From: Caproiciproducens sp. NJN-50
Lineage (GTDB): Bacteria > Bacillota > Clostridia > Oscillospirales > Acutalibacteraceae
NCBI RefSeq assembly: GCF_004103755.1
Contig: NZ_CP035283.1
Span: forward strand, 746,269 to 770,268
Reading direction: 5' to 3'
DNA length: 24,000 bases
Part shown: positions 6,559 through 24,000 of the stretch, one piece after another
Position numbering within the stretch: position 1 is the first letter of the stretch
How the letters are laid out: each line of letters opens with the position of its first letter
Program-made: the position numbers and the translations under genes
The notes under the pieces: model-generated
Seen by the model: the letters and a program-made list of their open reading frames with translations, nothing else
Told to the model about the DNA's origin: nothing
The model's database searches: none

Positions 6559-6581
6559 GGACGCATCGCTCCTTTCCAAAA

Positions 6582-7112
6582 TTAAGGCAGAACGACCTGC
6601 ATGAGATAGTGGAAGATCACCAGGATGGCCGCTACCACGCCCACGGAAATAAAAACCTTATGAAGCGGTTTTCTGCGGTCGAGCAGGTACATCGTGCCGA
6701 AAAGAAAGACCAAAGAGGTCACGGTAAAATGCGCAAACGGCAGCAGCACCCCATAGGCCAGAACCATAGCCAGCAGGACGATCACGTCTCTGGAAACCAC
6801 ATGCCTGACGGCCTCTTTCAATCCCCGCTCCCTGAATTTATCCCGGAACAGGATTCCGCACGTCACCAGGATAATCAGGAAGAATATCGCCAAAATGAAG
6901 AGCTGAGGCAGGGAATTGGGGTTCGTCAGGCCGGTAAAAATGCCCTCCAGCTTCAGCGAATCGGCAAACAGCGCCAAAGTGATGAGAAACATCAGTCCCA
7001 GAAGCCAAATTTCACCCGGAGCATGCTTTGGGGTGCCCTCGTCACCCGGCTTGACTGCGGCGCTGTCCTTTTCCCGCTCCGCGGCCTCCGCTTCTATTTC
7101 CTTGTTTTCCAT
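6582..7112 (-). CDS. tctB: TTT transporter small membrane subunit TctB-like
   Basis: A 176-aa protein with a charged N-terminus and about four hydrophobic helices, immediately upstream of tctA. SD GGGAGGAG precedes ATG 7112. Confidence 0.7.
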   Translation of the reverse strand: MENKEIEAEAAEREKDSAAVKPGDEGTPKHAPGEIWLLGLMFLITLALFADSLKLEGIFTGLTNPNSLPQLFILAIFFLIILVTCGILFRDKFRERGLKEAVRHVVSRDVIVLLAMVLAYGVLLPFAHFTVTSLVFLFGTMYLLDRRKPLHKVFISVGVVAAILVIFHYLMQVVLP

Positions 7113-7220
7113 GATACTCCTCCCTTCTTTTAAAACCTTCCCCGGCAGCTTGAAAGTTCTATGTATGCTTCCGCGCTATATTGTTTCCAAGAAAGCGCGT
7201 ACCGATTCAAACATGCCGGA

Positions 7221-9233: not shown

Positions 9234-9306
9234 GACAACGGCATCTCCTAATTTTAAAAATCATGAAACCTGGAAATAGTACGGGATGGTGTGCTGATAG
9301 GCCTGA

Positions 9307-10434
9307 TTACTTCTTTTCAAGGATTTTGGCGATGGTCATCCGCTGGATCTGATTGGTGCCCTCGAAGATCTGGAAGATCTTGGCGTCGCGCATCAGTTTT
9401 TCCACCGGATATTCGCGGCTGTAGCCGTAGCCCCCAAAAATCTGAACCGCATTGGAGGTAACCTCCTGCGCCGCGTCGGTTACAAATGTCTTGGTAATGG
9501 AACCTTCCATGCGCAGGTCGCGGTGTTCGTCCTTGTCCAGCAGACGCATGGTATTGTTGACCAGGACACGGGAGGCTTCGGTCTTGATGGCCATATCCGC
9601 CAGCATGGACTGCACCATTTGGAATTTGATGATAGGCTGCCCGAACTGTTTGCGCTCCTTGGCGTAGGCCACGGATTCGTCCAGAGCGCGTTGCATGATG
9701 CCCACGGCCAGCGTAGCGACGAAAGCGCGCGAGATGTTCAGGGCGCCGAGGGCGACTTTAAGGCCTTTGCCTTTTTCACCGACAATGTTCGTTGCGGGAA
9801 CGCGGACGTTGTCGAAGATCAGTTCGGTGGTGTTGGAAAGGCGGAACCCCATCTTTTTCTCGTGGGCGCCGACGGAAAAACCCGGAGTGTCACGGTCGAT
9901 CAGGAAAGCCGTAATGCCCTCTTCCGTCCGGAAAAAGCTGACATACAGGGAAGCGCAGGCGCCGTTGGTGGCAAAGGTCTTGGTGCCGTTCAGGATGTAG
10001 TCGTTTCCCTCTTTGGCCGCGGTTGCGCGCAGGGCGCCCGCGTCCGAACCGGCGCCGGGCTCCGTGATGGCGAAGCAGGCGAACTTTCCAGAGGAAAGCA
10101 CATCGGCGAAATACTGCGCTTGCTCTTTGGTTCCATAGAGCATAACGTTTCGGAACGCTACGAAATTCGTTACAAGAGTGTCGGCATAACCGGCGTCGAC
10201 TTTGGCCAGCTCCTCGAAAAGCATTGCGGTCGTTTCAAAGTCGAGGCCCATTCCGCCGTACTCCTCTGGGATTTCCGCCATATGCAGACCCATATCGAGA
10301 GCGGGCTGAAACAGTTCGACGGGGCATTCGCCCTTTTCGTCACATTCCGCGACATGAGGTTTGACCGCCTTTTCCGCCAGGTCGCGGACCATTTCAATCA
10401 GTTCAGTTTGCTCATCAGTATAAAGCAGAGCCAT
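9307..10434 (-). CDS. Acyl-CoA dehydrogenase (short-chain/butyryl-CoA dehydrogenase-like)
   Basis: Full-length ACAD architecture: FAITEPGAGSD, the TKTFATNG-type FAD/substrate segment, and a C-terminal IFEGTNQIQR with the catalytic-base Glu position conserved. SD AGGAAAGGA lies upstream of ATG 10434. Confidence 0.88.
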   Translation of the reverse strand: MALLYTDEQTELIEMVRDLAEKAVKPHVAECDEKGECPVELFQPALDMGLHMAEIPEEYGGMGLDFETTAMLFEELAKVDAGYADTLVTNFVAFRNVMLYGTKEQAQYFADVLSSGKFACFAITEPGAGSDAGALRATAAKEGNDYILNGTKTFATNGACASLYVSFFRTEEGITAFLIDRDTPGFSVGAHEKKMGFRLSNTTELIFDNVRVPATNIVGEKGKGLKVALGALNISRAFVATLAVGIMQRALDESVAYAKERKQFGQPIIKFQMVQSMLADMAIKTEASRVLVNNTMRLLDKDEHRDLRMEGSITKTFVTDAAQEVTSNAVQIFGGYGYSREYPVEKLMRDAKIFQIFEGTNQIQRMTIAKILEKK

Positions 10435-10540
10435 TTTGATAACATCCTTTCCTAAAAAAACTAAAGCGATGGGAAATAGACAATTCGTACAAAGCGGGCG
10501 CAGTAAAACCGGTTTTTTTTGGACCTGCTGGACTTTGTTT

Positions 10541-10577
10541 ATAATATAACACGTTTCATTGGTTTCAACAATTGAAA
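10541..10577 (-). promoter_or_regulatory. Putative sigma-A promoter of the minus-strand operon with overlapping dyad TTTCAA-caa-TTGAAA
   Basis: On the minus strand: -35 TTGAAA (complement of 10563-10568), a 16-nt spacer, and -10 TATTAT (complement of 10541-10546). The -35 is one arm of a perfect 6+6 inverted repeat at 10563-10577. The inner 13 bp fit the LysR-type T-N11-A pattern. Confidence 0.4.
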
Positions 10578-10814
10578 ACGGGTAGCGATAGATAAGTCCT
10601 ATAGGTTCCTACTAAAGCGCAGGATTTTCCGATTAGTATTTTAGAAGAATTGATGCTACAATAAACAAAAAATCAGGTGCTACAGCTTACAGAATCAGCA
10701 TTTTAACAACACTGTATGCCTGCTTTTTTGATCAAAGCATGGGTTGCGGTGAGCGCAGTCCATACGCACACACCTTTGGGTTAAAATTTTCACATTCATT
10801 TTAGGAGGTAAAAA

Positions 10815-12008
10815 ATGAGCAAATTGAGCGATGAGCAATTTCAGGCGTACCTAAAGCAGATTCGTGAATTGGCCGAGGGCCCGTTCGACGAGATGCAGAA
10901 AGAAATCGAGGTCACGAACAAGTTCCCTCAGGAATTTTACGATCTTGCAATCAAAAATGATCTGTACCGTTTTGCACTGCCCGAAAAATACGGCGGGTTC
11001 GGCCTGACCGAGAAGCAGATCCTGATGGTACAGGAAGAGTTTTCCCGCGGCCCCGGCGGCATGCGCATGCATCTTCATCATGCGGCCGACCTCGACTGGC
11101 GCATTCTGGACGACTTTGGCAGCGATGAACTGAAAGCCCAGTATATGGACAAATTTCAGGATAAGACCGTTTACTCCAACTTCGCCCTGACGGAAAAAAC
11201 CGGCGGAACCGGCGCCGACGTTCATACCACCGCGATCAAAGACGGCGACTACTACGTCATTAACGGGGAAAAGACCCTGATTTCCCATACGGACTGCTCC
11301 GATTTTACCTATCTCATTGTGAGTACGGACCCCACCTCCGACAAAGACAGCCGTCTGTCCGCGTTCTTTGTGGATGTTCATACCCCCGGCTACGAGATCG
11401 TCCCGATGCCCCATATGATGGGCTGCCGCGGCGCCGGCCATGCCGGGCTGCGCTTCACCAACATGCGCGTCCACAAGAAATTTCTGCTGGGCAAAGAGGG
11501 TATGGGCCTTGAGATTGCGATGCACTCGCTCGCTGTTTCCCGCGCGCATATCGCCGTCAGCAACCTTGGCATGGCGCAGAGAATGCTGGAAATGACGATC
11601 AAACGCGCAAAAGACCGCGTCACGTTCGGCAAGCCCCTGATCAAGCGCCAGGCGATCCAGCAGACCATTGCCGACATGGGAACCGAAATTCATGCCCTCC
11701 GCCTGATGATTTATGATTTCGCCGAGGACTACGAGGCCGGCCGCGACATTGAAATGAAGGCCGCAATGTGCAAACTGCACAGCATCAACACCGTGAAGAT
11801 GGTTTCCGACGCCATGCTGGAAATCTTCGGCGGCATCGGCTACTTCGAGGACTGCGAGTACGGCCCCACCGAGCGCCTGTACCGCGACTGCCGCGCCATG
11901 TGGCTGGAGGAAGGCCCGCGCACGGTCCAGCGCCTGACTGCATTCCGCGGCCTGGAGAAGAACGGCGGCGTTATTTCCTACAAGGACAACGGATACCGGA
12001 CCGTCTGA
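10815..12008 (+). CDS. Acyl-CoA dehydrogenase family protein (divergent)
   Basis: Excellent SD (TTAGGAGGT) 6 nt before ATG 10815. ACAD-type N-terminal, middle and C-terminal domains are present (FALTEKTGGTGAD, YVINGEKTLISH, C-terminal WLEEGPRTVQR in place of the usual YEGT motif). Confidence 0.82.
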   Translation: MSKLSDEQFQAYLKQIRELAEGPFDEMQKEIEVTNKFPQEFYDLAIKNDLYRFALPEKYGGFGLTEKQILMVQEEFSRGPGGMRMHLHHAADLDWRILDDFGSDELKAQYMDKFQDKTVYSNFALTEKTGGTGADVHTTAIKDGDYYVINGEKTLISHTDCSDFTYLIVSTDPTSDKDSRLSAFFVDVHTPGYEIVPMPHMMGCRGAGHAGLRFTNMRVHKKFLLGKEGMGLEIAMHSLAVSRAHIAVSNLGMAQRMLEMTIKRAKDRVTFGKPLIKRQAIQQTIADMGTEIHALRLMIYDFAEDYEAGRDIEMKAAMCKLHSINTVKMVSDAMLEIFGGIGYFEDCEYGPTERLYRDCRAMWLEEGPRTVQRLTAFRGLEKNGGVISYKDNGYRTV

Positions 12009-12014
12009 GCTTCG

Positions 12015-12039
12015 GGGACGCCGCCCTGGGCGGCGTCCC
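12015..12039 (+). other. GC-rich intercistronic stem-loop
   Basis: GGGACGCCGCC (12015-12025) is the exact reverse complement of GGCGGCGTCCC (12029-12039), with a 3-nt apex. No T-tract follows. It lies between the ACAD stop (12008) and the CoA-transferase start (12068). Confidence 0.6.
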
Positions 12040-12067
12040 GCATCTGGGCAAACAACAAAGAAAGAAA

Positions 12068-13297
12068 GTGATTCCATTGAAGCCTTTGGAAGGAGTCAGG
12101 GTTGTTGATCTGACGACGTTTCTGGCTGCGCCGACCACTGCCCGCGTGCTTGGCGAGTGGGGAGCGGACGTGGTCAAGGTGGAGTCGCCCAAGGGCGACC
12201 CCGGACGCACGCAGGGCGCGGTGTTCGGAATGCCGTATGAGGACGATGAGAACCTCGGCTTTGACATGTCCAATATGAACAAGCGCTTCATCACCCTGAA
12301 TCTTAAGACCGAAAAGGGCCTTGAAGTCATGCACAGGCTCCTTGCGGACGCCGATGTGTTCATCACAAATATCCGAAGCAAGTCTCTGGCCAAGCTGGGT
12401 CTGGACTATGAGACGCTGAGCGCAAAATATCCGAAACTCGTTTGGGCGCAGTGCCTCGGTTACGGTGAGAAGGGTCCTGAAAAGGATTCCGCCGGATTCG
12501 ACGTGACCTGCTATATGGCCCGCGGCGGCGTTTTCGGAACAACTGTGAACAAGGGCGACGCCCCCATGATTCCCACCAACGGCTACGGCGATTTTCAGGT
12601 TTCCATGTGCGTTGCCTCCGGCATCAGTGCGGCGCTGTTCAACCGGACCCGCACCGGCCGGGGCGAAAAGGTTACGGTCAGCCTGCATCACGCGGCCGTC
12701 TTCATGCTGAGCACCGCCGTCGTTTCCGCCCAGTATGGCAACAAATACCCCAAAAGCCGTTTTGAGGTCATTTGCCCCACAAACAATGTCTACCGCACCA
12801 AAGATGACAAGCTGATCGCGATGTGCGCCCCCGAGTACGACCGGGACTACAACAAGGTTATGAAGCTCATCGGCCGCGGGGATCTTGTCGGCCATCCGGA
12901 TTATTCGAATTGCGACCACATGAATGCTTTACATAAGAACGCAGAGGTCGTAAAGATTTTTGATGAGGCGATCGGTCAGTTTAACCGCGCCGAGATCCTG
13001 AAAATCTTTAAGGAGAATGACGTTCCCTGCGAAGCATGCTACGAGCCTCTCGATATGTACGAAGATGAGCAGGTCTGGGCGAACGGGGTTATGACGAAGC
13101 TGGACTGCCCGTCCGGCGAGCGCTGCATTGCGACCAACCCGGTTAAATTCGGCTCTTACGCCGAACCGAGCTACAAAGTTTCTTCCGCGCAGGGGACCGA
13201 TACCGTGGAAGTGATGAAAGGAATCGGGTACAGCGAAAGCGAAATCAGGGAATACCTGACCGAAGGCGCCGTTCAAGGCAAGAAGGCGCTGAAATAA
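12068..13297 (+). CDS. Family III CoA-transferase (CaiB/BaiF/Frc type)
   Basis: Typical N-terminus PLEGVRVVDLTTFLAAPTTARVLGEWGADVVKVESPKGDPGR and about 409 aa. The ORF-track frame opens at 11768, but that part overlaps the preceding ACAD. The first plausible start is GTG 12068, which has only a weak purine-rich SD. Confidence 0.85.
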   Translation: MIPLKPLEGVRVVDLTTFLAAPTTARVLGEWGADVVKVESPKGDPGRTQGAVFGMPYEDDENLGFDMSNMNKRFITLNLKTEKGLEVMHRLLADADVFITNIRSKSLAKLGLDYETLSAKYPKLVWAQCLGYGEKGPEKDSAGFDVTCYMARGGVFGTTVNKGDAPMIPTNGYGDFQVSMCVASGISAALFNRTRTGRGEKVTVSLHHAAVFMLSTAVVSAQYGNKYPKSRFEVICPTNNVYRTKDDKLIAMCAPEYDRDYNKVMKLIGRGDLVGHPDYSNCDHMNALHKNAEVVKIFDEAIGQFNRAEILKIFKENDVPCEACYEPLDMYEDEQVWANGVMTKLDCPSGERCIATNPVKFGSYAEPSYKVSSAQGTDTVEVMKGIGYSESEIREYLTEGAVQGKKALK

Positions 13298-13345
13298 CCG
13301 CTGGAATTACCGACGATTTTTAATTTTGAAGAGGAGTATGAGAAC

Positions 13346-14659
13346 GTGAAAGCAAAAAAGTACTTGTGGGTTTTAGCTACCGTTTATTTGGCTTACTTTA
13401 CCCAAGGCATCCAGGCTTTGGTTCTTAGTCAAAACAAGGTTTCATTTTATACTCAATGGGGATTCACAAACGCCGATGCCGGTGCGGCGGCAGTCAGCGC
13501 AGCCATCGCTTTCACCGGTCTCGGCAAGTTCGTATCCGTATGGGTTTGCGGTGAAATTTCAGACAGGATCGGCCGCAAACCGATGGTATTTGTCGGCGCC
13601 CTGGCCTATGTGCTCAGTTTCTTAGGCCTGCTGGTTACTTCCAACGTTGTGGTTGCTAACGTCTGTGCCTTCGGTTTGGGTGCCGCAACTTCCTGCTTTG
13701 ACGGAGCCAGCTATCCCGCCGTGCAGGAAAGCTGGGTAAAGGCCCCCGGCACCGCGCTGATCCTGATCAAAGGGTTTATCTCCGTGTCGGGCCTGATGTA
13801 CCCGCTTCTGGTCGTTTCCCTGACGCAGGCCGGTAATTGGAAGATGGGAATCATTATTCCACTTATTTTGTCTGTTCTTACTTTCCTTATCGCAATTATT
13901 ACCCCGTTCTCTTATGATGAGGAAATGAAACGTCGCAAAACGGATCCGGCAGCCAAAGCTGCTTATGAAAAGGAGCTTGCCGAAAAGAAGCACGTTCTCG
14001 ATGCGGATGCCAAGAAGGCCGCTGCCCGCTTCAAATCCACCCCGCCCAAATTCGTCGTTGTCGGCTGCGCTGTTTATGGATTTATCGCTATGGCTACCAT
14101 GTACTCTGCACAGCAATACATCAAGGCGTTCGGCAAGGTTGTTGTCGGAATGAGCGACATGAGCGCCGCCGGGCTGACCAGTGTCTATACCGCCGGTTCA
14201 CTGATTGCTGTCATTGTCTGGGGCTTCTTTATGGCAAAATTACGTTGGCGCACTTTGAAAGTTTTGCTGATTGATCTTGCCGGTTCTGTGCTGGGTTATG
14301 GCCTGGTCTGTATCGTCCGCGTTCCCGCCATGGTTTACCTTGCCACCTTCATGATCGGCCTGTTTGCTGCCGGCGGCGCCCTGCAGTGCGGCGTTTCCCT
14401 CATGCAGGAATTCCATCCCGGCAACAAGGGCAGAAACCTCGGTATTTACTACACATTTATGGGAGCTGCATCCTACGCTATTCCCTATATTCAATCTTGG
14501 CTGATTGGTTCAAGCTCCGAGGCCTCTGCTACGGTATCCTGCTTACTGCTCAATCTCGGCATGGCTGTTGTCGGACTCTTCTTCATGATCTATCTGAGTG
14601 TTAACTATAAGAAGTGGTTCGGCGTCAGCGTCATGTCAAAAGCCGGCGGAGACGATTAA
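13346..14659 (+). CDS. MFS transporter
   Basis: GTG start 9 nt after GAGGAG (13331-13336). About 12 hydrophobic helices with a charged central loop (residues about 190-235) and an MFS-like loop GEISDRIGRKP. Confidence 0.8.
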   Translation: MKAKKYLWVLATVYLAYFTQGIQALVLSQNKVSFYTQWGFTNADAGAAAVSAAIAFTGLGKFVSVWVCGEISDRIGRKPMVFVGALAYVLSFLGLLVTSNVVVANVCAFGLGAATSCFDGASYPAVQESWVKAPGTALILIKGFISVSGLMYPLLVVSLTQAGNWKMGIIIPLILSVLTFLIAIITPFSYDEEMKRRKTDPAAKAAYEKELAEKKHVLDADAKKAAARFKSTPPKFVVVGCAVYGFIAMATMYSAQQYIKAFGKVVVGMSDMSAAGLTSVYTAGSLIAVIVWGFFMAKLRWRTLKVLLIDLAGSVLGYGLVCIVRVPAMVYLATFMIGLFAAGGALQCGVSLMQEFHPGNKGRNLGIYYTFMGAASYAIPYIQSWLIGSSSEASATVSCLLLNLGMAVVGLFFMIYLSVNYKKWFGVSVMSKAGGDD

Positions 14660-14746
14660 TTTCGATCAGCTTTCTTTTCGCGATAGCGGTTTGGGTCTGG
14701 TCGGAAATTGACGTTTCTCGTTAAAATTTGAAGAATTCCAACGAAA

Positions 14747-14787
14747 GGCATAAAATCTCAGGGGAAGCTTCCCTGGGATTTTATGCC
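14747..14787 (+). terminator. Long stem-loop after the MFS gene (putative terminator or RNA-stability element)
   Basis: GGCATAAAATC..CAGGG (14747-14764) pairs with CCCTG.GATTTTATGCC (14771-14787) around an AAGCTT apex, giving about 16 bp with one mismatch. There is no clean T-tract on the plus strand. Confidence 0.5.
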
Positions 14788-14928
14788 GTCATTACAGAAC
14801 GTGCTAAGAAAGATTTTCCTCGACTTTTGCCGCAAAAAGGCCGGAATCTGTAAGTTGTTCTCAGCAAAAACAAGACATAGCTTAAATACTTCAAAATCTG
14901 TTTTATTAAAGAGAGGAGAAGATATATC

Positions 14929-15801
14929 ATGGCAGAAAGAATTACCGGACATACGGAACTGATTGGTCTGATCGCTTATCCGATCCGCCATTCCAGTTCT
15001 CCGAAAATGCACAACGAAGCATTTGCAAAATTAGGTCTAGATTATGCCTACCTGGCGTTTGAGGTGGACAACGATACTCTGGAGGATACTGTGAAGGGCC
15101 TTCGCGCGATGAAAGTACGCGGCTTTAACGTATCGATGCCAAACAAGACGGTTATTTCCAAATATCTCGACAAACTGACTCCTGCCGCCGAAATGTGCGG
15201 AGCGGTTAATACCGTCATCAACGACAATGGCGTATTGACGGGAACAATCACAGACGGTATCGGTTATATGACCGCGCTCAAAGACGCCGGCATCGATATC
15301 ATAGGAAAGAAGATGACGATTGTCGGAGCCGGCGGCGCGGCAACTGCGGTCGAGGTGCAGGCTGCGCTCGACGGCGTGTCTGAGATGTCCATTTTCAATG
15401 CAAACGATAAATTCTGGCCGAGAGCCGAGCATAATGTTCAAACAATCAATGAGAAAACGAAATGTAAGGCAACACTGCACAGGCTGGAGGACCTTGACGA
15501 TCTAAAAGCCGAAATTGCGTCGAGCCCCCTGTTTGCCAATGCGACAGGCGTAGGTATGAAGCCGCTGGAAGGCCGGACTTATATCCCGGATCAGTCTTTC
15601 CTGCGCCCTGACCTGATCGTTACCGATGTTGTTTACGCTCCGACAGAAACCGCGCTTTTGAAAATGGCGAAAGAGGTCGGATGCAAAACAATGAACGGCC
15701 TGGGAATGATGTTATATCAGGGTGCCGCCGCGTTCAAGCTTTGGACCGGGAAAGAAATGCCGATCGATTATATAAAAGAAGTCCTCAATATCCATTATTA
15801 A
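14929..15801 (+). CDS. ydiB: Quinate/shikimate 5-dehydrogenase, YdiB-like
   Basis: SD AGAGGAGAAG upstream. Collinear with E. coli YdiB as I remember it (ELIGLIAYPIRHSSSP, NVSMPNK, LTPAAEMCGAVNTVI, GAGGAATA, GVGMKPLEG, CKTMNGLGMMLYQGAAAFKLWTGK). It has ITDG where the family normally has NTDG. Confidence 0.88.
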   Translation: MAERITGHTELIGLIAYPIRHSSSPKMHNEAFAKLGLDYAYLAFEVDNDTLEDTVKGLRAMKVRGFNVSMPNKTVISKYLDKLTPAAEMCGAVNTVINDNGVLTGTITDGIGYMTALKDAGIDIIGKKMTIVGAGGAATAVEVQAALDGVSEMSIFNANDKFWPRAEHNVQTINEKTKCKATLHRLEDLDDLKAEIASSPLFANATGVGMKPLEGRTYIPDQSFLRPDLIVTDVVYAPTETALLKMAKEVGCKTMNGLGMMLYQGAAAFKLWTGKEMPIDYIKEVLNIHY

Positions 15802-15857
15802 GCTGCGGCTGATTGCTGTCAATCCTAGCCAAAATGGTGAAAGGATGAGTAAGCCAT

Positions 15858-16619
15858 ATGAAAACAGTTACTGTAAAAAACGTTGTTCTCGGTGATGGAA
15901 TCCCGAAAATCTGTATCCCGATCGTCGCAAGGACCAAAAAGGATATTGTCGAGGAAATCAAAGGTCTCAAGCAGTACCATGCGGACCTTGTCGAATGGCG
16001 CGTGGACTGGTTTGAAGACGCCGACGATATCGAAAAGATCAAAGAAGTACTGCGAGAGCTTGCTCCTGTTGTTCAAGAGCTTCCCCTTCTGTTTACATTC
16101 CGTACCGCAGAGGAAGGCGGAAACCGGCCGGTCGACCCGGAGTCCTATGTCAGGATCAATCAGGAAGCAGCGGCGAGCGGAGTTGTAGATCTGATCGACG
16201 TCGAGTTGTTCAAGGGCGATGAAGTGATGAAAAAACTTGTCGAAAGCGCTCACCGCTCAGGCGTGAAAGTCGTGGCTTCCAGCCATGATTTTGAAAAAAC
16301 TCCGCCGAAAGATGAAATCCTCTACCGGTTAAGAAAAATGCAGGATCTGGGGGCCGATATCCCAAAGATAGCGGTTATGCCCAAATCCAAACTGGACGTT
16401 CTGGAACTGCTTGAGGCCACCGCCGTTATGTCGGAGAAATATGCCGACAGGCCAATTATCACGATGTCCATGTCCGGCCCTGGTGTGATTTCACGCCTGT
16501 CAGGGGAACTTTTTGGCTCCGCGCTGACTTTCGGCGCAACCAAAACAGCCTCGGCGCCAGGTCAGATCGGCGCAGAGGATCTTTACGGAGCCCTGCACCT
16601 CCTGCACAACAGCCTGTAA
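15858..16619 (+). CDS. aroD: Type I 3-dehydroquinate dehydratase
   Basis: The N-terminus MKTVTVKNVVLGDGIPKI matches the AroD N-terminus. Also present: EWRVDWF, the catalytic-His region SSHDFEKTP, and the Schiff-base Lys region PKIAVMPKS. Confidence 0.92.
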   Translation: MKTVTVKNVVLGDGIPKICIPIVARTKKDIVEEIKGLKQYHADLVEWRVDWFEDADDIEKIKEVLRELAPVVQELPLLFTFRTAEEGGNRPVDPESYVRINQEAAASGVVDLIDVELFKGDEVMKKLVESAHRSGVKVVASSHDFEKTPPKDEILYRLRKMQDLGADIPKIAVMPKSKLDVLELLEATAVMSEKYADRPIITMSMSGPGVISRLSGELFGSALTFGATKTASAPGQIGAEDLYGALHLLHNSL

Positions 16620-16795
16620 GGGCCCCGATGACGGGGGTTCATTTCCTGAGAGCTAGAGTATCGCTTTTACGGAGGAGCCCGTTTCGTCTTTTATCCTGGG
16701 TGCTGGTGGGATAGTCTGCGGCTTTGCGTCTATTTTACCAGCGTCAGGGCAAATGCGGGAATATAAAAAATTACGCATAAAGGAGATTTTCCATC

Positions 16796-17668
16796 ATGGG
16801 AGACTGGATTGACGGCCATACAGTGCCATTCGGGCTGCTCGGCTCGCCGGTGGGACACTCGGGTTCGCCGGCCATGTATAATTATTGTTTTGAGAAAGAC
16901 GGGTTAAACTGCGTTTATCTCGCGTTCGATATCGACCTCAATACGCTGGACGCCGGAATGAGCGCGGTCAAGGCCCTTCATTTCAAAGGAATCAACGTCA
17001 CGATGCCGTGCAAGAGCGCCGCGTTGAAATATGCGGACGAGTGCACCAAAGCCGTTCAGCTGATCGGCGCAACCAACTGCATGGTATGCGAAGATGGAAA
17101 ATGGATCGCACACAATACCGATGGGATCGGTTATGTGAACAATCTGAAGGCGCACGGCGTCGATGTCGCGGAAAAGAAAATCACGCTGATCGGCGGCGGC
17201 GGGGTCGGCATGGCAATCCTGGTCCAGTGCGCGCTCTCCGGCGCAAAGGAAATCTCCGTCTTCAACATCAGGGATTCTTTCATGGGAAATCTGGAGAAGC
17301 ACGCGGAGCTGGTCAACCGCGAAGTTCCCGGCTGCACCGTCCGCGTCCTTGATCTGGCGGATAAGGATAAACTGAGCGCGGAGATCGCAAGCAGCCAGAT
17401 CCTGACAAACGCTACCCGCGTCGGCATGGCCCCGCAGGAACAGTCCACGCCGATCCCGGATGCCGGCGTATTCCACAAAAGCCTTACAGTTGCGGATACG
17501 GTATACAATCCGCGTGAGACCCGGCTGATCCGGGAAGCAAAAGCCGCCGGCTGTCTTGGAATCGGCGGGATCGGCATGCTTGTCCGCCAGGGTGAAGCGG
17601 CGTACCGGATCTTCACCGGAAAAGCTATGCCCGTCGAGGAAATTCAGAAAAAATTCTTCGACAACTGA
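16796..17668 (+). CDS. aroE: Shikimate/quinate dehydrogenase paralog (AroE/YdiB family)
   Basis: SD AAAGGAGA 10 nt upstream. Motifs GLLGSPVGHSGSP, NVTMPCK, IGATNC, HNTDGIGY and GGGGVGMA, plus a YdiB-like cofactor loop VFNIRD. Confidence 0.85.
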   Translation: MGDWIDGHTVPFGLLGSPVGHSGSPAMYNYCFEKDGLNCVYLAFDIDLNTLDAGMSAVKALHFKGINVTMPCKSAALKYADECTKAVQLIGATNCMVCEDGKWIAHNTDGIGYVNNLKAHGVDVAEKKITLIGGGGVGMAILVQCALSGAKEISVFNIRDSFMGNLEKHAELVNREVPGCTVRVLDLADKDKLSAEIASSQILTNATRVGMAPQEQSTPIPDAGVFHKSLTVADTVYNPRETRLIREAKAAGCLGIGGIGMLVRQGEAAYRIFTGKAMPVEEIQKKFFDN

Positions 17669-17711
17669 CCAATGCCCCTATCCAAATATTATCTAAGTTA
17701 AGATCGGCTCA

Positions 17712-17757
17712 TTGTAAAAATCACCTCTATTTGTTATAATAAATAGAGATGATTTTT
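17712..17757 (+). promoter_or_regulatory. Near-consensus extended -10 promoter embedded in a 17-bp-arm inverted repeat, upstream of the LysR gene
   Basis: -35 TTGTAA (17712-17717), 17-nt spacer, then TGT-TATAAT with the -10 at 17735-17740. AAAAATCACCTCTATTT (17716-17732) pairs with AAATAGAGATGATTTTT (17741-17757) with one mismatch. The same element could act as the terminator of the preceding gene. Confidence 0.5.
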
Positions 17758-17819
17758 ATCATGTAGAGATTATTTCTATTTTTCGGGTGTTTAGCGTGGT
17801 GACGGGAAGAGGGACTTTT

Positions 17820-18731
17820 ATGAATTTGTCTCAACTGTATTATTTTAAGAAGCTTGCAGAGGTTCAGCACTATACAAAGGCTGCAAAGGAACTCTATATC
17901 ACGCAGCCCAGCCTGAGCGAGGCAATCTCTTCCCTGGAATCGGAGCTTGGCGTCCGGCTGTTTTTGAAGAACGGGCGCAATATCAGGCTGACCCAATACG
18001 GACAGGAGTTTTATCAATACGTTTCAGCGTCGCTCAACGAACTTGACAAGGGCGTCAATGTAATCCAGGAACAGGTTAAGGATATCGGAGGGACGATTGA
18101 AATCGGCTGTATCGCCACGCTGCTGGTTGGATTCATGGCGCGCGCGATGTATTCCTATCGCGAGTCTGTGAGCGAAAAGACGGTTTTCCACGTTTTTGAA
18201 ACCCCCACCGCGGTGGCGATTGAAGGCCTGAAGTCGGAAATCTACGATATCGCTTTCTGCTCGAAGGTGGAAGATCCCGATCTGCGGTTTACTCCGATTC
18301 TGGAGCAGGAGATCCTGGCGCTGGTGAATCAACAGCATCCGCTGGCAAAATGCGAAACGATCACGCTCAGGGATCTGGCGGGCTATAATCTGATCACTTA
18401 TCGCCCGGATATTCAGATCGGCAGGGATGTGGGCACACTCCTGGCTGAAAACGGCCTGAAGGCGGAACAGCCTTTTATGGAGGAAGGCTCCATAGGAGCC
18501 AGCGTGCAAATGAATCCGATCGTTGGCATCGTTGCCAACACCGTCTGGCTCAGCCAGTATCCGAATCTGGTGAGGATCCATTTCTCCGATGTTCCAAGGG
18601 GGTTCCGGAAAGTCTGCATGGCGTATAATTCAAAGCACTTTATCAACCGGCCGACGGAGCGCTTTATGGACTTTGTGCTGTCCCACCTTGATACGCTGGT
18701 GTCGGAGGAATACAGGCTTGAGAACGGCTGA
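17820..18731 (+). CDS. LysR-family transcriptional regulator
   Basis: N-terminal wHTH MNLSQLYYFKKLAEVQHYTKAAKELYITQPSLSEAISSLESELGVRLF followed by a LysR substrate-binding domain. ATG 17820 is preferred over GTG 17787 because of SD GGAAGAGGGA upstream. Confidence 0.9.
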   Translation: MNLSQLYYFKKLAEVQHYTKAAKELYITQPSLSEAISSLESELGVRLFLKNGRNIRLTQYGQEFYQYVSASLNELDKGVNVIQEQVKDIGGTIEIGCIATLLVGFMARAMYSYRESVSEKTVFHVFETPTAVAIEGLKSEIYDIAFCSKVEDPDLRFTPILEQEILALVNQQHPLAKCETITLRDLAGYNLITYRPDIQIGRDVGTLLAENGLKAEQPFMEEGSIGASVQMNPIVGIVANTVWLSQYPNLVRIHFSDVPRGFRKVCMAYNSKHFINRPTERFMDFVLSHLDTLVSEEYRLENG

Positions 18732-18733
18732 GG

Positions 18734-19270
18734 TTACGGCGACTTTCTGCTGCCCTGGGGAGCCGGCGCTTTCATCTTATCCATGGGAACCTGCAACAGC
18801 CCGAGTTCTCTGTTCCAGGCGAAGAGAGCGAAGCCGCGCTTGCAGCGAAACGTGCATTCCAGACAGGGGTCCTCGTCGCAGTAGCAATAGGCGTCGGTGT
18901 CGGCAAGGGCGAACACAATGGAATGCTTGGACGGCGGGATGTATTTCAGCTGCCCGCCGGTAAAAGTCTTCAGGCAGATCCATTCGGGCGCGAGCGCGTC
19001 CGTGCTGGAGTACCAGGTCACTTTGACGGCATTTTCATTGAACCCGCCGACAATCTCATAATCGATCATCAGACCGCAGCCGGCTTCCAATGGGACCGGC
19101 TGCAGTTTTTTCATCGGCGCGGAACAGCACCGCACCTCCGCGTCCGCGGTTCCGATCAGTTGAAAGACGCTGCCGCATGACTCGCAGAGAAAAAACTGCG
19201 GATCGCCGCAGATCGGTTCCGGCTTTCTGGTTTCCCGAGCACGCCTCGGCCCAAATCTCTTATCCGGCAT
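18734..19270 (-). CDS. Desulfoferrodoxin-like protein: desulforedoxin-type N-terminal FeCys4 motif plus a divergent, Cys-rich SOR-like C-terminal domain
   Basis: C29-x2-C32-x15-C48-C49 followed by APMKKL matches the Dfx centre I pattern CxxC-x15-CC-xxPM. The C-terminal part aligns loosely with the SOR beta-sandwich but lacks the His ligands. It carries C129-x-C131-x4-C136-x2-C139-x3-C143. The start overlaps the ligase stop by 11 nt. Confidence 0.65.
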   Translation of the reverse strand: MPDKRFGPRRARETRKPEPICGDPQFFLCESCGSVFQLIGTADAEVRCCSAPMKKLQPVPLEAGCGLMIDYEIVGGFNENAVKVTWYSSTDALAPEWICLKTFTGGQLKYIPPSKHSIVFALADTDAYCYCDEDPCLECTFRCKRGFALFAWNRELGLLQVPMDKMKAPAPQGSRKSP

Positions 19271-20945
19271 CGTTTGAACTCCTTGCCTGCATCTGCCCGT
19301 GGGAATCCCGCCCCGTTCGGCGGGCCAGTTCCTGCGCGAGCAGATACTTTTTTATCTTTCCCGATTCCGTCATTGGAATCGCGTCTATATTTTCTACCCG
19401 TTCTGGCCAGGCATACTTGGAGACGTTGGATTTGCGCAGGAAATCCGTCAGCATTTGCAGTGTGACCGGCTTGGCCGGATCGGATGGCACCACAAATGCG
19501 CAGATCCTTTCTCCGAGCCGGGGGTCCGGCATACCGATCACGGCGGAGTCCCGGACGGCCGGACAGCGGAGCACGTTTTCGTTTAGGGAATTTGCGTTCA
19601 GGTTCACTCCTCCGCGGATGATGACGTCTTTCATTCTGCCCACGACCCGGATATTCCCTTCCGGATCGCGCGTGCAGATGTCTCCGCTGTGAAACCAACC
19701 CTCGTCGTCCAGAACCTTTTCTGTGGCGGCGGGATCGTTCATGTAGCCGACAAAAACGTTGGGACCGCGGGACCATTCCTCCCCTTCGGTGCCGTCCGCG
19801 GCGTCCCTTCCGTCCCGGCCGATGATGCGGACTTCAATTCCGTCGATCGGTCGGCCGGCGGAGGGCTTGATCTCTGCGGACCATTCGGCCGGCCGGATCA
19901 ATGTGTGTGGAATACTCTCCGTGGAGCCGTAGCATTCACACAGGCGGATCCCATATTCAGATGCTTCCCTGACAAGATAGGACGGCACGGGGGCGCCTCC
20001 GCACATAAATAGCCGAAGAGTCGGCATTTGCTTCCTGGTTGACTGGAGATACTTGAGGATATCGTATACGAACGTGGTGGTTCCCATGGAATAGGTACAG
20101 CGCTCGCGGTTGATCAGCCCGACGGCATCATCGGCGGAAAACTTCTTTTCGAGCACAAGCCCTGCGCCCGCAAGCATGGTTGCCAGCACGCCGTGCGCAA
20201 AACCGGTGGCGTGGTACAATGGAGCCGGCATAAACATAATATCCTCCGGAGTGACCCCGACCGCCCGGTTGAACCCCTGTTCGCAGAAGATCAGGTTATT
20301 GTGGGTCAGCATGGCGCATTTTTTGGCGCCGGCCGTACCGGACGTGCAGATCACCGCAGCGACCGATTCGCTTCCAACGGGACCGGCGCCGCGCAGCGTG
20401 TCCATGTTCTGGGGAACATCGACAATTTTTCGAAGGGTTGGGTAACCGGCAGCGGCCGTCCCCTGAGTTTCCTCCACCTGGATCACGGCGCGGATGCCCG
20501 GATGCCGGGAGTACATCTGCCGCGCAAGTACCGTGTAATCCACGCCTTTATAGGCCGTGGGGCAGAAGTATGCCCTGGTTCCAACGCGGTCAAAGATCTC
20601 AGATAGCTCTTCCGCCTGAAACGAAGGGGACAGAGGGTTTGCAATTGCGCCGATCTTCAGGCAGGCGACCGTGATGATGACGAATTCGCTCCAAACGGGA
20701 ATCTGGAAGGAAACGGCATCCCCGGGGCAGATGCCGGCGGAGAGAAGGTATGCCGCCAGTCTGCCGCTTTTCTCATCCAACGCTCGGTATGTGTACCGAA
20801 ACCCGCGGTCGTCTGCAATGTATTCACGATCCCCGAATCTAACAACGGCGTCGTTCCAACAGTCCAGCAGCGTCCGCGCGGTCCAGTACCCCTTTTTGTA
20901 GTAGAGTTCTTTCTGACGGCCGTTGACCTTTCCCTTGTCTGTCAT
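19260..20945 (-). CDS. AMP-dependent acyl-CoA synthetase/ligase (ANL superfamily)
   Basis: A 561-aa protein with SD GAGGAG upstream of ATG 20945. ANL motifs: ICTSGTAGAKKCAMLTH (P-loop-like), YGSTE, WFHSGD, and RMKDVIIRGGVN with SGKIKK near the C-terminus. Confidence 0.88.
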   Translation of the reverse strand: MTDKGKVNGRQKELYYKKGYWTARTLLDCWNDAVVRFGDREYIADDRGFRYTYRALDEKSGRLAAYLLSAGICPGDAVSFQIPVWSEFVIITVACLKIGAIANPLSPSFQAEELSEIFDRVGTRAYFCPTAYKGVDYTVLARQMYSRHPGIRAVIQVEETQGTAAAGYPTLRKIVDVPQNMDTLRGAGPVGSESVAAVICTSGTAGAKKCAMLTHNNLIFCEQGFNRAVGVTPEDIMFMPAPLYHATGFAHGVLATMLAGAGLVLEKKFSADDAVGLINRERCTYSMGTTTFVYDILKYLQSTRKQMPTLRLFMCGGAPVPSYLVREASEYGIRLCECYGSTESIPHTLIRPAEWSAEIKPSAGRPIDGIEVRIIGRDGRDAADGTEGEEWSRGPNVFVGYMNDPAATEKVLDDEGWFHSGDICTRDPEGNIRVVGRMKDVIIRGGVNLNANSLNENVLRCPAVRDSAVIGMPDPRLGERICAFVVPSDPAKPVTLQMLTDFLRKSNVSKYAWPERVENIDAIPMTESGKIKKYLLAQELARRTGRDSHGQMQARSSNDAG

Positions 20946-21160
20946 CTATTTCCGCCGCTCCTCTCTGGGCATTTTAAACTGTTATCATTATACAATAAGA
21001 TGTACAAAATACACAATGATCATGGTGAAAATAATGTATCGTTTTGTGCTATTTATATCGAAGCAAGCATAGGGAAAAACTATCATTTCTGCGGTAGATC
21101 GATTTGCTTCCGGTTATCCGGAACTTGAGGAAGATGATGCCGTATACTATATATAGAAGA

Positions 21161-21188
21161 AGAGCACTGCATGATTGTGCAGTACTCT
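21161..21188 (-). terminator. Hairpin after the thioesterase gene (weak terminator candidate)
   Basis: AGAGCACTGCA (21161-21171) pairs with TGCAGTACTCT (21178-21188) with one mismatch. On the minus strand it is followed by a T/C-rich stretch, not a clean T-run. Confidence 0.35.
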
Positions 21189-21226
21189 CTCTTAACCTTC
21201 CGGACCCGGCGCGATGACGCCTCATT

Positions 21227-21688
21227 TCAAGCCGGGGTGATTTCGATCCGGTCCAGAACATACAGCAGAACGCTGGCCACAGTGACGACCGTGTCGGACT
21301 CGTCCCGGATGACCGCCCGCACGTTGCACAGAGTTTTTCCAACCTTTTCAGGCGTTGCGGTGCAAATGAGCCTGTCGCCGCCGGCCGGCCGGAAAAACTG
21401 AAGATTCATGGTTGCCGTGGTCACGTCGAGCCCGCGGCTGAAGCAGGAGAACGCCGAAATCACATCGACGAGAGTGCTGAGCGCTCCGCCATGGCAGAAC
21501 CCGTGCAGGTTCCGGTTCTTATTGGAGAGGAGAATCTCGCCCTCTGCCATGCCGTCGCCGAGGCGGGTCAGGTTGATATCGGAGAGAAGGGGGTAGTTTT
21601 CTTCCGTGTTGAATTTTTGATGAAGATACCGGTCCCAGGATTCTTTCGTCCAGGGTTTGCCGCCGTTTGTTCTGTCAAAAGCCATCAT
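21227..21688 (-). CDS. PaaI-family hotdog-fold thioesterase
   Basis: A 153-aa protein with the characteristic segment NLHGFCHGGALSTLVDVISAF and the downstream beta-sheet region TTATMNLQFFRPAGGDRL. Confidence 0.85.
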   Translation of the reverse strand: MMAFDRTNGGKPWTKESWDRYLHQKFNTEENYPLLSDINLTRLGDGMAEGEILLSNKNRNLHGFCHGGALSTLVDVISAFSCFSRGLDVTTATMNLQFFRPAGGDRLICTATPEKVGKTLCNVRAVIRDESDTVVTVASVLLYVLDRIEITPA

Positions 21689-21987: not shown

Positions 21988-22026
21988 GTTTCAACAATTG
22001 AATTTAACAATTTAAAGTGCTATATT
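21988..22026 (+). promoter_or_regulatory. Putative sigma-A promoter of the leader/ABC operon, with the same dyad overlapping the -35
   Basis: -35 TTGAAT (21998-22003), 17-nt spacer, -10 TATATT (22021-22026). GTTTCAACAATTGAA (21988-22002) is identical to 10562-10576 and contains TTCAA-caa-TTGAA. Confidence 0.45.
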
Positions 22027-22062
22027 ATATGTAATCTAAAACTAAAAAGGAGGCCCCCGAAA

Positions 22063-22191
22063 ATGCGCGGCAATTTTTCCTCCAAAGTTATCGCTGACGA
22101 TGTTCGCACAAAGGCGGGCCGATTTTATTATGCCTATTATTACTTTTTTACTTTTGCAAAACATAATAGGCATGCCATTACGGGACGATAG
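22063..22191 (+). CDS. Leader peptide, 42 aa, Tyr/Phe-rich (MRGNFSSKVIADDVRTKAGRFYYAYYYFFTFAKHNRHAITGR)
   Basis: ATG 22063 lies 9 nt after AGGAGG (22048-22053). Nine of eleven consecutive codons (22123-22155) are Tyr or Phe. The ORF runs through RNA segments 1 and 2 of an attenuator and stops 20 nt before the terminator stem. Confidence 0.6.
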   Translation: MRGNFSSKVIADDVRTKAGRFYYAYYYFFTFAKHNRHAITGR

Positions 22192-22211
22192 TCTCTTCTA
22201 TATTTTCAGAG

Positions 22212-22255
22212 AAACAGTGGCTTGTCTTAAAAAGGCAGGCCACTGTTTTTATATT
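22212..22255 (+). terminator. Rho-independent terminator (attenuator helix 3:4) upstream of the ABC operon
   Basis: AAACAGTGGCTTGTC (22212-22226) pairs with GGCAGGCCACTGTTT (22234-22248): 15 bp including 2 G-U pairs, with a 7-nt loop. T-rich sequence follows (TTTTT ATATTT). It sits 30 nt upstream of the SBP start codon. Confidence 0.75.
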
Positions 22256-22284
22256 TAAATGGATTGACAAGAAAGAGGGATAAC

Positions 22285-23319
22285 ATGAGAAAGAGAATTC
22301 CGGCATTCCTGTTGGCCGCAGTGATGGCGCTGTCGCTGACGGCGTGCGGAGGCGCTCCAAATTCTTCCAAAGCGGACTCGTCGCCGGCGGCTTCCGATGG
22401 ATCCGCGCCGGCCGCATCCAAGCAGTCGGAAGCAAAAAGCTATACCGTTGGAATCTGCCAGCTGGTGCAGCATCCTGCCCTTGACGCGGCAACAAAGGGC
22501 TTTCAGCAGGCGCTGACCGACAAGCTGGGAAGCAAAGTCACCTTCGATGTGCAGAATGCGTCCGGGGACACGGCTACCTGTGCCGTTATCAGCAATCAGT
22601 TCGTTTCTTCCAATGTAGACCTTATTATGGCAAATGCCACGCCGGCCCTTCAGGCTGCCCAGACGGCGACAAGCAAAATTCCGATCCTCGGCACTTCTGT
22701 CACCGATTACGGCACTGCTCTCGGCATTGACAACTGGACCGGCGCGAGCGGAAAGAATGTCTCCGGTACCTCCGATCTGGCTCCTCTCGACCAGCAGGCG
22801 AAAATGTTGAATGAGCTTTTTCCAAAGGCTAAAAAAGTCGGCATCCTTTACTGTTCCGCGGAGCCGAACTCCAAGTATCAGGCCAAGGTGATTACGGAAG
22901 AGCTTTCAAAGATGGGTTATACCTGCAAAGAATATACCTTCTCCGACTCTAACGATGTGCAGTCCGTCACCAAGACGGCGGCTTCCGAAAGCGACGTGCT
23001 GTATCTTCCCACGGACAACACCGTCGCTTCAAATACCGGAATCATCAAAAACGTCTGCCTTCCTGCGAAAATCCCGGTGATTGCCGGAGAGGAGGGCATC
23101 TGCTCCGGCTGCGGTATCGCGACGCTTTCCATCAGCTATTATGATTTGGGGTACACGACGGGTGAGATGGCCTATGACATTCTTGTCAACGGTGCGGATC
23201 CTTCCACGATGAAAGTAAAGTACGCTCCCAAATTCACAAAAGAGTATAACCCCGATATCTGCAAGGAGATGGGGATTACTCCCCCCAGCGGCTACCAGGC
23301 GATCCAGAAAGCGTCCTGA
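22285..23319 (+). CDS. ABC transporter substrate-binding lipoprotein (ABC_sub_bind / PF04392-like family)
   Basis: ATG 22285 with SD AGAGGGA upstream; the ORF-track start at 22264 is a TTG. Lipobox LSLTACGG. Family-typical YTVGICQLVQHPALDAATKGF and PILGTSVTDY. Confidence 0.82.
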   Translation: MRKRIPAFLLAAVMALSLTACGGAPNSSKADSSPAASDGSAPAASKQSEAKSYTVGICQLVQHPALDAATKGFQQALTDKLGSKVTFDVQNASGDTATCAVISNQFVSSNVDLIMANATPALQAAQTATSKIPILGTSVTDYGTALGIDNWTGASGKNVSGTSDLAPLDQQAKMLNELFPKAKKVGILYCSAEPNSKYQAKVITEELSKMGYTCKEYTFSDSNDVQSVTKTAASESDVLYLPTDNTVASNTGIIKNVCLPAKIPVIAGEEGICSGCGIATLSISYYDLGYTTGEMAYDILVNGADPSTMKVKYAPKFTKEYNPDICKEMGITPPSGYQAIQKAS

Positions 23320-23409: not shown

Positions 23410-24000
23410 ATGGAACCAATGGCCTATCTCTCCTCTCTCGACCCCATGAATTTTCTCACAGCCGTTCCGGGCAATGTCGCGCAGGGCATTATTTGGGGGA
23501 TCATGGCTCTGGGGGTATTCATCACGTTCCGGCTGCTGAATTTCGCGGATCTGACGGTGGACGGCACCTTTGCAACAGGCGGCGCCGTGGCGGTCGTTCT
23601 GATTCTTGCGGACCTGCCGGTTCCGCTGGCTCTCGCCGCCGCTGTGGCCGCGGGGTTTGCCGCGGGGCTTGTCACCGGCCTGCTCAACACCGTTCTGGGA
23701 ATTCCGGACATCCTCGCGGGGATTCTGACTCAGATTTCGCTCTGGTCGGTGAACCTGGTTGTCCTGAGCGGCGCAAACAAGGCGGTAAACGTGGATAAAT
23801 ATCCGTTGATCGTGACACTGCGGAATGTTGAAAGCTCCATTGTCACAGCGCTTGTTTTCGCGGCGGTTTTGATCTGCGTCCTGTACTGGTATTTCGGCAC
23901 AGAGCAGGGAAGCGCCATCCGGGCCACCGGCAGCAACCCTCAGATGGCAAAGGCGCAGGGAATCAATATTGATTTTATGAAAGTGCTTGCAATCAGCTTA
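23410..24000 (+). CDS. ABC transporter permease (BPD_transp_2-type), N-terminal part; runs off the right edge
   Basis: Absent from the ORF track because there is no stop in the window. My translation from ATG 23410 is open for 197 codons: MEPMAYLSSLDPMNFLTAVPGNVAQGIIWGIMALGVFITFRLLNFADLTVDGTFATGGAV... The sequence is hydrophobic and typical of the permease partner of PF04392-type binding proteins. Confidence 0.8.
   Translation, partial: MEPMAYLSSLDPMNFLTAVPGNVAQGIIWGIMALGVFITFRLLNFADLTVDGTFATGGAVAVVLILADLPVPLALAAAVAAGFAAGLVTGLLNTVLGIPDILAGILTQISLWSVNLVVLSGANKAVNVDKYPLIVTLRNVESSIVTALVFAAVLICVLYWYFGTEQGSAIRATGSNPQMAKAQGINIDFMKVLAISL

Follow-up and report, generated by a model that had tools for sequence, protein, structure and literature searches.

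In Clostridia, the control of amino-acid genes is usually ascribed to T-boxes and repressors. In the pheL-pheA and pheM-pheST systems of Escherichia coli, a short open reading frame (ORF) preceded by a Shine-Dalgarno (SD) sequence carries a run of aromatic codons that ends in an FFT-like motif. These codons are part of segment 1 in a set of alternative helices (1:2, 2:3 and 3:4), the last of which is an intrinsic terminator. The same arrangement is seen in a 42-codon leader ORF on the chromosome of Caproiciproducens sp. NJN-50 (Clostridia; CP142518.1), within an analysed stretch of 24,000 nt (the window), directly ahead of an ATP-binding cassette (ABC) transporter operon. On balance, we read this element as a ribosome-mediated, leader-peptide transcription attenuator that senses tyrosine and phenylalanine and controls a three-gene importer of aromatic amino acids. 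It shares no sequence or Rfam similarity with E. coli pheL; its run is a mixture of Tyr and Phe codons with Tyr dominant, and its ORF has 42 codons instead of 15. It also departs from both E. coli systems in its target, an importer and not a biosynthetic enzyme or a tRNA synthetase, in its clostridial host, and in an extra helix that occludes the leader start.

Mixed Phe/Tyr codons are also found in aroR-aroF of Corynebacterium glutamicum (Neshat et al., 2014, as summarised in PMC11802643), where they read F-Y-F and where, according to the summary, stalling controls aromatic supply. This system is actinobacterial, has three regulatory codons against nine here and targets a DAHP synthase; the summarised account reports only Phe limitation as acting. 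Among Firmicutes and Mollicutes, leader-peptide attenuators have been described for histidine in the Bacillus cereus group, Peptostreptococcaceae and Erysipelotrichales (PMC9413887), for leuL in Streptococcus (PMC5314783) and for aroF in Acholeplasma (uORFC-13-1; PMC8632094). They belong to the same mechanism class and are, like the present element, lineage-specific and patchily distributed, but differ from it in the amino acid sensed or in the target. None of those described is from Oscillospiraceae or concerns a PF04392 importer with a Tyr/Phe run. The original prediction of an attenuator at this locus had called such control unusual for Firmicutes; it is indeed rare, but these reports show that it had already been described. 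T-box-controlled TrpXYZ importers, such as Streptococcus suis trpX (PMC9382623) and one related locus treated below (L050), belong to the same ABC family, are switched on at a shortage of charged aromatic tRNA and employ a terminator/antiterminator leader. However, a T-box reads uncharged tRNA directly, whereas the present leader contains no T-box and a translating ribosome would be the sensor.

The elements of the leader are the following (window coordinates).

22049 to 22053, plus strand: SD sequence GGAGG, 9 nt ahead of the leader ATG, read from the sequence.
22063 to 22191, plus strand: leader ORF of 42 codons with the stop codon TAG at 22189-22191, peptide MRGNFSSKVIADDVRTKAGRFYYAYYYFFTFAKHNRHAITGR; read from the sequence and already called as a gene in public annotations (P0001).
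22123 to 22155, plus strand: putative regulatory run F-Y-Y-A-Y-Y-Y-F-F-T-F, codons 21-31, comprising 5 Tyr and 4 Phe and overlapping the 5' strand of helix 1:2.
22125 to 22180, plus strand: helix 1:2 (anti-antiterminator), core 22130-22140 with 22163-22173, outer extension 22125-22129 with 22176-22180.
22168 to 22227, plus strand: proposed antiterminator, helix 2:3, AGGCAUGCCAUU (22168-22179) with AGUGGCUUGUCU (22216-22227), from constrained folds.
22210 to 22255, plus strand: intrinsic terminator, helix 3:4, 19-bp stem 22210-22228 with 22232-22250, AAA loop, U tract to 22255, -27.6 kcal/mol.
22052 to 22120, plus strand: helix P0/P0b, from the minimum free energy (MFE) fold and the RNAalifold consensus.

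Much of this anatomy had been anticipated. The SD-preceded 42-codon ORF and its aromatic run are as the original prediction described them, and so are the perfect pairing of 22130-22140 with 22163-22173 (11 bp) and the pairing of 22169-22179 with 22216-22226 at 10 of 11 positions, two of them G-U and the remaining one a U-U mismatch. The predicted terminator is present with its U tract, but the stem comprises 19 bp and not 15. Likewise, the binding-protein gene does lie just downstream, but starts at 22285 and not at 22286. Two elements had been overlooked, namely an operator of HisR/TrpR type in the promoter and the covarying helix that sequesters the leader start.

The attenuator would operate as follows. 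Transcription would start at about 22033, at a promoter also equipped with the TrpR/HisR-family operator, and a ribosome would load at the GGAGG/AUG and translate the 42-codon leader. With Tyr-tRNA or Phe-tRNA scarce, it would stall within the five Tyr and four Phe codons, i.e. on the 5' strand of helix 1:2. Segment 2 (22163-22180) would then be free and its 3' half could capture the terminator's left arm (22216-22227) while the right arm is still to be transcribed; with the antiterminator formed, RNA polymerase would read through into the genes of the binding protein, the permease and the ATPase. With charged tRNA plentiful, the ribosome would proceed to the stop codon at 22189-22191 and mask segment 2, the 19-bp terminator would form and the transcript would end at about 22255. 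In the case of no translation, P0/P0b, 1:2 and 3:4 would all form and transcription would terminate too.

Conservation was followed in 125 loci gathered via the binding protein; related loci carry L-numbers and WIN denotes the window's leader. Leader ORFs with SD and ATG were found in at least eight lineages (WIN, L111, L115, L001, L002/L112/L117, L123, L124, L125, L003, the L006 clade and L044), always equally far from the binding-protein gene. Identities given below are those of the binding protein to that of the window, and runs are in the SD-ATG frame.

L111, L115 and L001: 81-86% identity; leader ORF of 41-42 codons; run, together with WIN, FY[YD]AYY[YC]FFT.
L002, L112 and L117: 76-78% identity; leader ORF of 34 codons.
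L123: 71% identity; leader ORF of 26 codons.
L124 and L125: 70% and 66% identity; leader ORF of 42 codons, at 1283-1411 in L124 and 1275-1403 in L125, homologous and with other codon content.
L006 clade (eight distinct sequences, rumen samples): 68-69% identity; leader ORF of 49-54 codons; run FYFFVFFFT.
L003: 66% identity; leader ORF of 37 codons; run FSFAYFYFYFFF.
L044: 58% identity; leader ORF of 35 codons; run FQFYFRFFTVRF / FQFYFRFFT.

All related leaders have the SD 7-11 nt before the leader ATG, and ORF length is 41-42 codons in six (WIN, L111, L115, L001, L124 and L125). The ATG frame is always without stops and the other two frames carry 0-4; after shuffling, the chance of each leader ORF staying open is 5-15%. 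The N-terminal halves of the peptides diverge strongly, and SD, ATG and ORF length are kept across sequences that are ~50% diverged. Between L124 and L125, the peptide LD.LI..H.KQN....LSER is retained through synonymous Leu, Asp and Ser changes, which constitutes a coding signature. The 42-aa leader ORF of the window appears in public gene calls as an unnamed protein, and a protein search with this peptide returned no match except itself. Translation of the leader ORF is thus well supported by sequence comparison, and an ORF of this size, equipped with a ribosome-binding site and placed in the 5' leader of the operon, is what a leader-peptide attenuator calls for. A small membrane protein was considered as the product and rejected, the hydrophobic stretch being too short and the sequence too variable. 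In L119, a terminator-like hairpin with a weak U tract lies directly past the promoter (~1400-1470) with no leader ORF; here the sensor part looks as if it had been deleted.

Nine of the 11 codons in the window's run are aromatic (P ~2e-8 at the window's aromatic codon frequency of 9.1%). Considering both strands and all frames, the leader run is the sole place within the 24 kb where at least 7 of 10 consecutive codons are aromatic, and the same 33 nt read in the other two frames give 2 and 3 aromatic codons of 11. Applied to 1.08 Mb of loci (both strands, three frames), the same threshold was reached 28 times, 17 of them at the leader position. Runs in the SD-ATG frame are found in four leader types; in three of these (L003, the L006 clade and L044), no part but the terminator can be aligned with the window's leader. 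A cluster of candidate regulatory codons is therefore present, with the caveat that L124, L125 and leaders of the L002 type have a reduced run or none. The original prediction had named loss of the run from orthologous leaders as an outcome that would speak against it; this outcome is seen in part, as loss or reduction in these five loci (L124, L125, L002, L112 and L117), while in-frame runs recur in the four leader types.

An aromatic-rich nascent peptide might also be an arrest peptide that responds to a small molecule, as TnaC does, and not to tRNA charging. What suggests this is composition only, namely aromatic residues across leader types and the recurrent FFT motif. The peptide sequence is, however, not conserved beyond composition, the run is lost or frame-shifted while RNA elements persist, and the leaders have no conserved C-terminal arrest motif that is independent of the RNA pairing constraints. 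We therefore regard arrest of this kind as extremely improbable.

The 256-nt leader folds with z = -4.3 relative to dinucleotide shuffles. RNAfold extended helix 1:2 to 12 bp, at -11.7 kcal/mol. The 5' strand of this helix holds candidate regulatory codons, with the Tyr codons UAUUAU directly complementary to AUAAUA of segment 2. Covariation was tested on an alignment of the seven alignable leaders. In helix 1:2 a C-G pair is replaced by U-A in three of the seven sequences, and RNAalifold recovers the helix. The terminator stem, which lies between the leader ORF and the first structural gene, is 94.6% paired across the seven, with 3 pairs altered on both sides. Taken together, helix 1:2 and the terminator are 89% paired with five pairs changed on both sides, and score 0.170 for covariation vs 0.126 in shuffles (1/500) and at most 0.095 with slid partners. 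RNAalifold independently yields P0, 1:2 and the terminator. In P0, the SD-AUG spacer GGCCCCC (22052-22058) pairs with GG.GGGCC (22113-22120), a GCGGGCC box just 5' of the aromatic run. In P0b, UGCGCGG (22064-22070; the UG of the start codon plus codons 2-3) pairs with 22104-22110. Both show compensatory changes, e.g. G-C/A-U and C-G/U-G/U-A. As the spacer and the start codon of the leader are paired in P0/P0b, the start region is occluded in the ribosome-free fold.

In helix 2:3, the 5' strand mimics the right arm of the terminator, and all seven sequences are compatible with the core of the helix (8 positions, with a conserved mismatch at the centre). In L125, one compensatory change was identified by eye, the A-U of WIN being replaced by G-C (AUACGAGCC against UGCUCGUCU). 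The L006 clade has a different predicted antiterminator, formed by CCCAUCUGxAAGAACUG at the ORF's 3' end and the terminator's left arm and loop; sequence differences within it affect a bulge or result in wobble pairs. When antiterminator duplexes were compared with shuffles, significance was reached only for WIN, L001, L112 and L044, in a test that is uninformative for GC-rich or split helices. An alternative antiterminator between the terminator's left arm and the GGCGGGCC box at 22111-22120 (-15.1 kcal/mol, z = -2.9) was rejected as a conserved partner because G-to-A changes in L002 break this pairing, as judged by hand, yet are compensated in P0.

Such conservation of RNA structure invites another explanation, in which the leader is a structured RNA, its terminator responds to a protein, small RNA or ligand instead of a ribosome, and the ORF is incidental and untranslated. 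It would account for the conserved and covarying P0/P0b, 1:2 and terminator, for the paired start codon and spacer, for a GAACGAUAAAGCC box that is conserved outside the ORF in L112 and L117, and for a run that is invariant at the nucleotide level in the L006 clade. Rfam searches nevertheless gave no family at or near threshold for the leader. Between 21700 and 22500 there was no match to the Phe, Leu/phe, Trp, His and Thr leader families or to the T-box at E values up to 10; at gathering thresholds no leader family or T-box was matched in the whole window, and over all 55 genome loci there was no leader family and a sole T-box, in L050. The large apical region inside P0 varies in sequence, unlike an aptamer. 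An untranslated ORF also sits poorly with the retention of SD, ATG and ORF length over ~50% divergence, with stops that occur out of frame only, with the synonymous substitutions between L124 and L125 and with a peptide that gene callers had already predicted. This explanation appears quite unlikely to us.

The switch of the proposed attenuator was examined in silico with transcripts cut just before the right arm of the terminator, in which a 30-nt ribosome footprint was masked. With the footprint on any aromatic codon from F21 to F31, the left arm was paired at 11 of 17 positions and its partner was 22168-22179. Without a ribosome, helix 1:2 formed and the left arm was paired at just 6 of 17. 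In the L006 clade and L044, a footprint on the stop codon breaks the left-arm pairing that is present with a stalled ribosome. The folds thereby reproduce the switch of the original prediction, in which a stalled ribosome would free segment 2 and a ribosome at the stop would cover it. The energies are -11.7 (1:2), -18.6 (2-3 region) and -27.6 kcal/mol (3:4), and the E. coli trp leader shows a similar hierarchy.

The genes that this leader would control are as follows.

22285 to 23319, plus strand: gene for a substrate-binding lipoprotein of 344 aa, PF04392 (Pfam 5.4e-62, 210 bits vs a cut-off of 25.9).
23410 to 24000, plus strand: start of the gene for a BPD_transp_2 permease of 317 aa, which extends past the window end (from translation).

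The binding-protein gene has an SD of its own, GAGGG at 22275-22279. A gene for a 264-aa ABC ATPase comes after the permease, as read from the gene calls of the same chromosome (locus L106). This composition of PF04392 binding protein, BPD_transp_2 permease and ABC ATPase, in that order, is that of TrpXYZ-type importers, the family to which the original prediction had assigned the operon. With the NCBIfam TrpX equivalog NF041285, the binding protein scores 236.7 bits, below the cut-off of 390, and is therefore related to TrpX but not TrpX. The family is better characterised than had been claimed, as crystal structures of PF04392 proteins with bound Tyr, Phe and Trp exist (PMC6816091). The closest solved homologs are Clostridium difficile CD0873 (6HNI, Tyr bound), Vibrio cholerae VC_1101 (3LKV, Phe) and Streptococcus pneumoniae SP1069 (3LFT, Trp). 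To CD0873, a tyrosine importer protein (6HNI; PMC6816091), the window's protein is 41% identical over 297 aligned residues. E269 aligns without gaps with Glu-263 of CD0873, which hydrogen-bonds to the hydroxyl of Tyr, and Y285 aligns with Tyr-279, where the Trp binder SP1069 has Gln. Both hallmarks of a CD0873-type Tyr binder, the Glu that specifies Tyr and the Tyr that excludes Trp, are thus conserved, a likeness drawn from sequence, and every ortholog with 40% identity or more retains GE...Y. Upstream of a 43%-identical ortholog, at 2610-2851 of L050, a T-box (98.8 bits) is found with the specifier loop GAA-UUC-G, corresponding to Phe. The operon would accordingly encode an importer of the aromatic amino-acid type, which agrees with a Tyr/Phe sensor.

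Ahead of the leader lie two further elements.

21998 to 22026, plus strand: sigma-70-type promoter TTGAAT-17 nt-TATATT with TG ahead of the -10 hexamer, from a promoter scan.
22000 to 22019, no strand assigned: 20-bp palindromic operator GAATTTAACAATTTAAAGTG between the -35 and -10 hexamers, from a pattern match.

Promoters of the TTGACT/TATAnT type are found in the equivalent place in L001, L002, L003, L006, L044, L111 and L115. A sub-threshold Rfam match to caiA RNA over promoter and SD (21989-22065; 27.1 bits vs a cut-off of 55.5, E 0.032) is probably due to chance. The operator palindrome fits cacTTTAnnnnnnTAAAgtg, the published operator consensus of HisR, a histidine repressor of the TrpR family (PMC9413887). 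Of 65 orthologous operons, 26 have the strict form TTTA-N6-TAAA in their upstream region, the expectation being 0.04 per 350 nt. In Clostridia, HisR sites take the form of a 20-bp TTTA-N6-TAAA palindrome over the promoter of ABC amino-acid importers, named hisXYZ, and HisR paralogs devoted to tyrosine metabolism have been proposed (PMC9413887). The inner positions here, TTTAAnnnnTTAAA, differ from those of most published sites (TTTAGyrtgrTAAA), so that a paralogous regulator is possible. A phmmer search of every ORF in the loci with E. coli TrpR revealed no adjacent repressor gene. The operator would be a second regulatory layer, separate from the attenuator; judging from the site, either a paralogous, aromatic-responsive repressor would act here or the operon would integrate histidine and aromatic signals.

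One could go further and assign all regulation to the repressor, with the operon being a histidine importer (hisXYZ) and the leader hairpins a constitutive partial terminator or an mRNA-stabilising structure. The fit to the HisR consensus and its strong enrichment upstream of orthologous operons point that way, as do the close orthologs L113 and L119, which keep the operator or the hairpin without a leader ORF. Yet a His codon run is not seen in any leader, all solved relatives bind aromatic amino acids and the residues of the Tyr pocket are conserved. In addition to the deviant inner positions of the operator, a search of all loci with eleven published hisX operator sequences returned one fuzzy match only, and the L006 clade possesses the attenuator with just half an operator. 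We consider control by the repressor only to be very unlikely.

Several observations weigh against a Tyr/Phe-sensing attenuator. The close orthologs L113, L114, L119 and L120 have no leader ORF. L124 (LDSLIVVHV) and L125 (LDALIAHI) lack an aromatic run and have Leu/Ile/Val-rich central regions. In L002, L112 and L117 the frame is shifted by two common single-T differences, so that the ORF reads RFMLS(I/M)(I/F)(T/A)F with 2-3 Phe left and its stop falls inside segment 2; the RNA segments are still conserved despite this shift, the GAACGAUAAAGCC box being kept even where it is untranslated. A long-read homopolymer error as the cause of the out-of-frame run in L002 was ruled out, since two independent assemblies (L112 and L117) share the frame. 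The 27-nt run of the L006 clade shows zero synonymous changes and may be under constraint at the RNA level. Because runs are lost, reduced or frame-shifted in relatives, the sensor region of the leader is, on these alignments, evolutionarily labile. The operator's match to the HisR consensus points to histidine and not to Tyr/Phe, and the pairing in P0/P0b would hinder leader translation. Covariation of the helices, which the original prediction had proposed as a check, was found for 1:2 and the terminator but not for 2:3, where no pair in the seven-sequence alignment is altered on both sides and the three outer pairs are disrupted in 4-5 sequences; shuffles do as well as the real leaders. The full-length MFE structure always includes the terminator, and the switch must therefore be kinetic, like that of the classical systems. 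In Bacillus subtilis, transcription and translation are poorly coupled.

Some of these points would be explained by a translation-dependent attenuator that is not a specific Tyr/Phe sensor. The leader would then report translation capacity, ribosome loading or amino acids that vary with lineage, and the aromatic run in the window's lineage would be a side effect of an AU-rich 5' strand in helix 1:2. The conservation of segment 2, the stop region and the terminator around centres that are Leu/Ile/Val-rich (L124, L125) or Phe-poor (L002, L112, L117) is consistent with this, as is the complementarity of the UAUUAU Tyr codons to AUAAUA. Occlusion of the start site by P0/P0b could moreover make ribosome loading the regulated step. 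A by-product of base pairing is, on the other hand, hard to reconcile with runs that recur in the SD-ATG frame of four leader types, three of them unalignable with the window's, with a run in the window that is aromatic in the ATG frame only, and with the strong concentration of aromatic stretches at the leader position. The transporter of aromatic type and the Phe T-box at a distant ortholog likewise favour specificity. We judge a non-specific attenuator unlikely, and retain the Tyr/Phe-sensing attenuator as our reading of the locus.

An extension of this reading, which we put forward tentatively and with considerable doubt, is a two-input switch special to Oscillospiraceae, in which a TrpR/HisR-family repressor site is combined with a leader sensor of Tyr/Phe charging, P0/P0b serves as a timing device and the sensor codons are repeatedly rewritten. 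If true, attenuation could work where RNA polymerase tends to outrun ribosomes, and one transporter would carry a natural, re-programmable leader-peptide sensor (aromatic, then Phe-poor, then Leu/Ile/Val-rich).

Divergent from the ABC operon, an AMP-binding acyl-CoA ligase and a 4HBT-family thioesterase are encoded at 19260-21688 (minus strand); elsewhere, the ligase is found upstream of the ABC operon in L111 and L113 and the thioesterase in L111. A 178-aa ORF at 18734-19270 (minus strand) shares 11 nt with the end of the ligase gene and shows a weak, below-cut-off Desulfoferrodoxin_N-like match (E 8.5e-4). The neighbourhood at 3889-18731 has a flavour of aromatic/quinate catabolism. It contains TctABC, an enoate-reductase-like flavoprotein (7221-9233), two acyl-CoA dehydrogenases, a CoA-transferase, an MFS transporter, two shikimate dehydrogenases, a type I dehydroquinase and a LysR regulator. 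Unrelated Rfam matches in flanking DNA of other loci are a Clostridiales-1 RNA in L029 (5817-5980, 80.8 bits) and a guanidine-II riboswitch in L052 (5727-5775, 35 bits).

The practical gain from this locus is modest, as the mechanism is textbook and the aromatic specificity of the family is already known structurally. What is new is a leader family of Oscillospiraceae that is Tyr-dominated, controls an importer and is accompanied by a TrpR-family operator and a start-occluding helix. If confirmed, it would be a clear case of classical ribosome-mediated attenuation in Clostridia, acting on an uptake operon rather than a biosynthetic one, and would provide an independent, regulatory argument that this PF04392 subgroup carries tyrosine and phenylalanine. 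As one importer family appears to stand under a leader peptide, a Phe T-box and a TrpR-family operator in different lineages, it offers a compact system in which to follow the replacement of regulatory devices. The uptake of these substrates is of relevance since gut and fermentation Oscillospiraceae turn aromatic amino acids into bioactive products.

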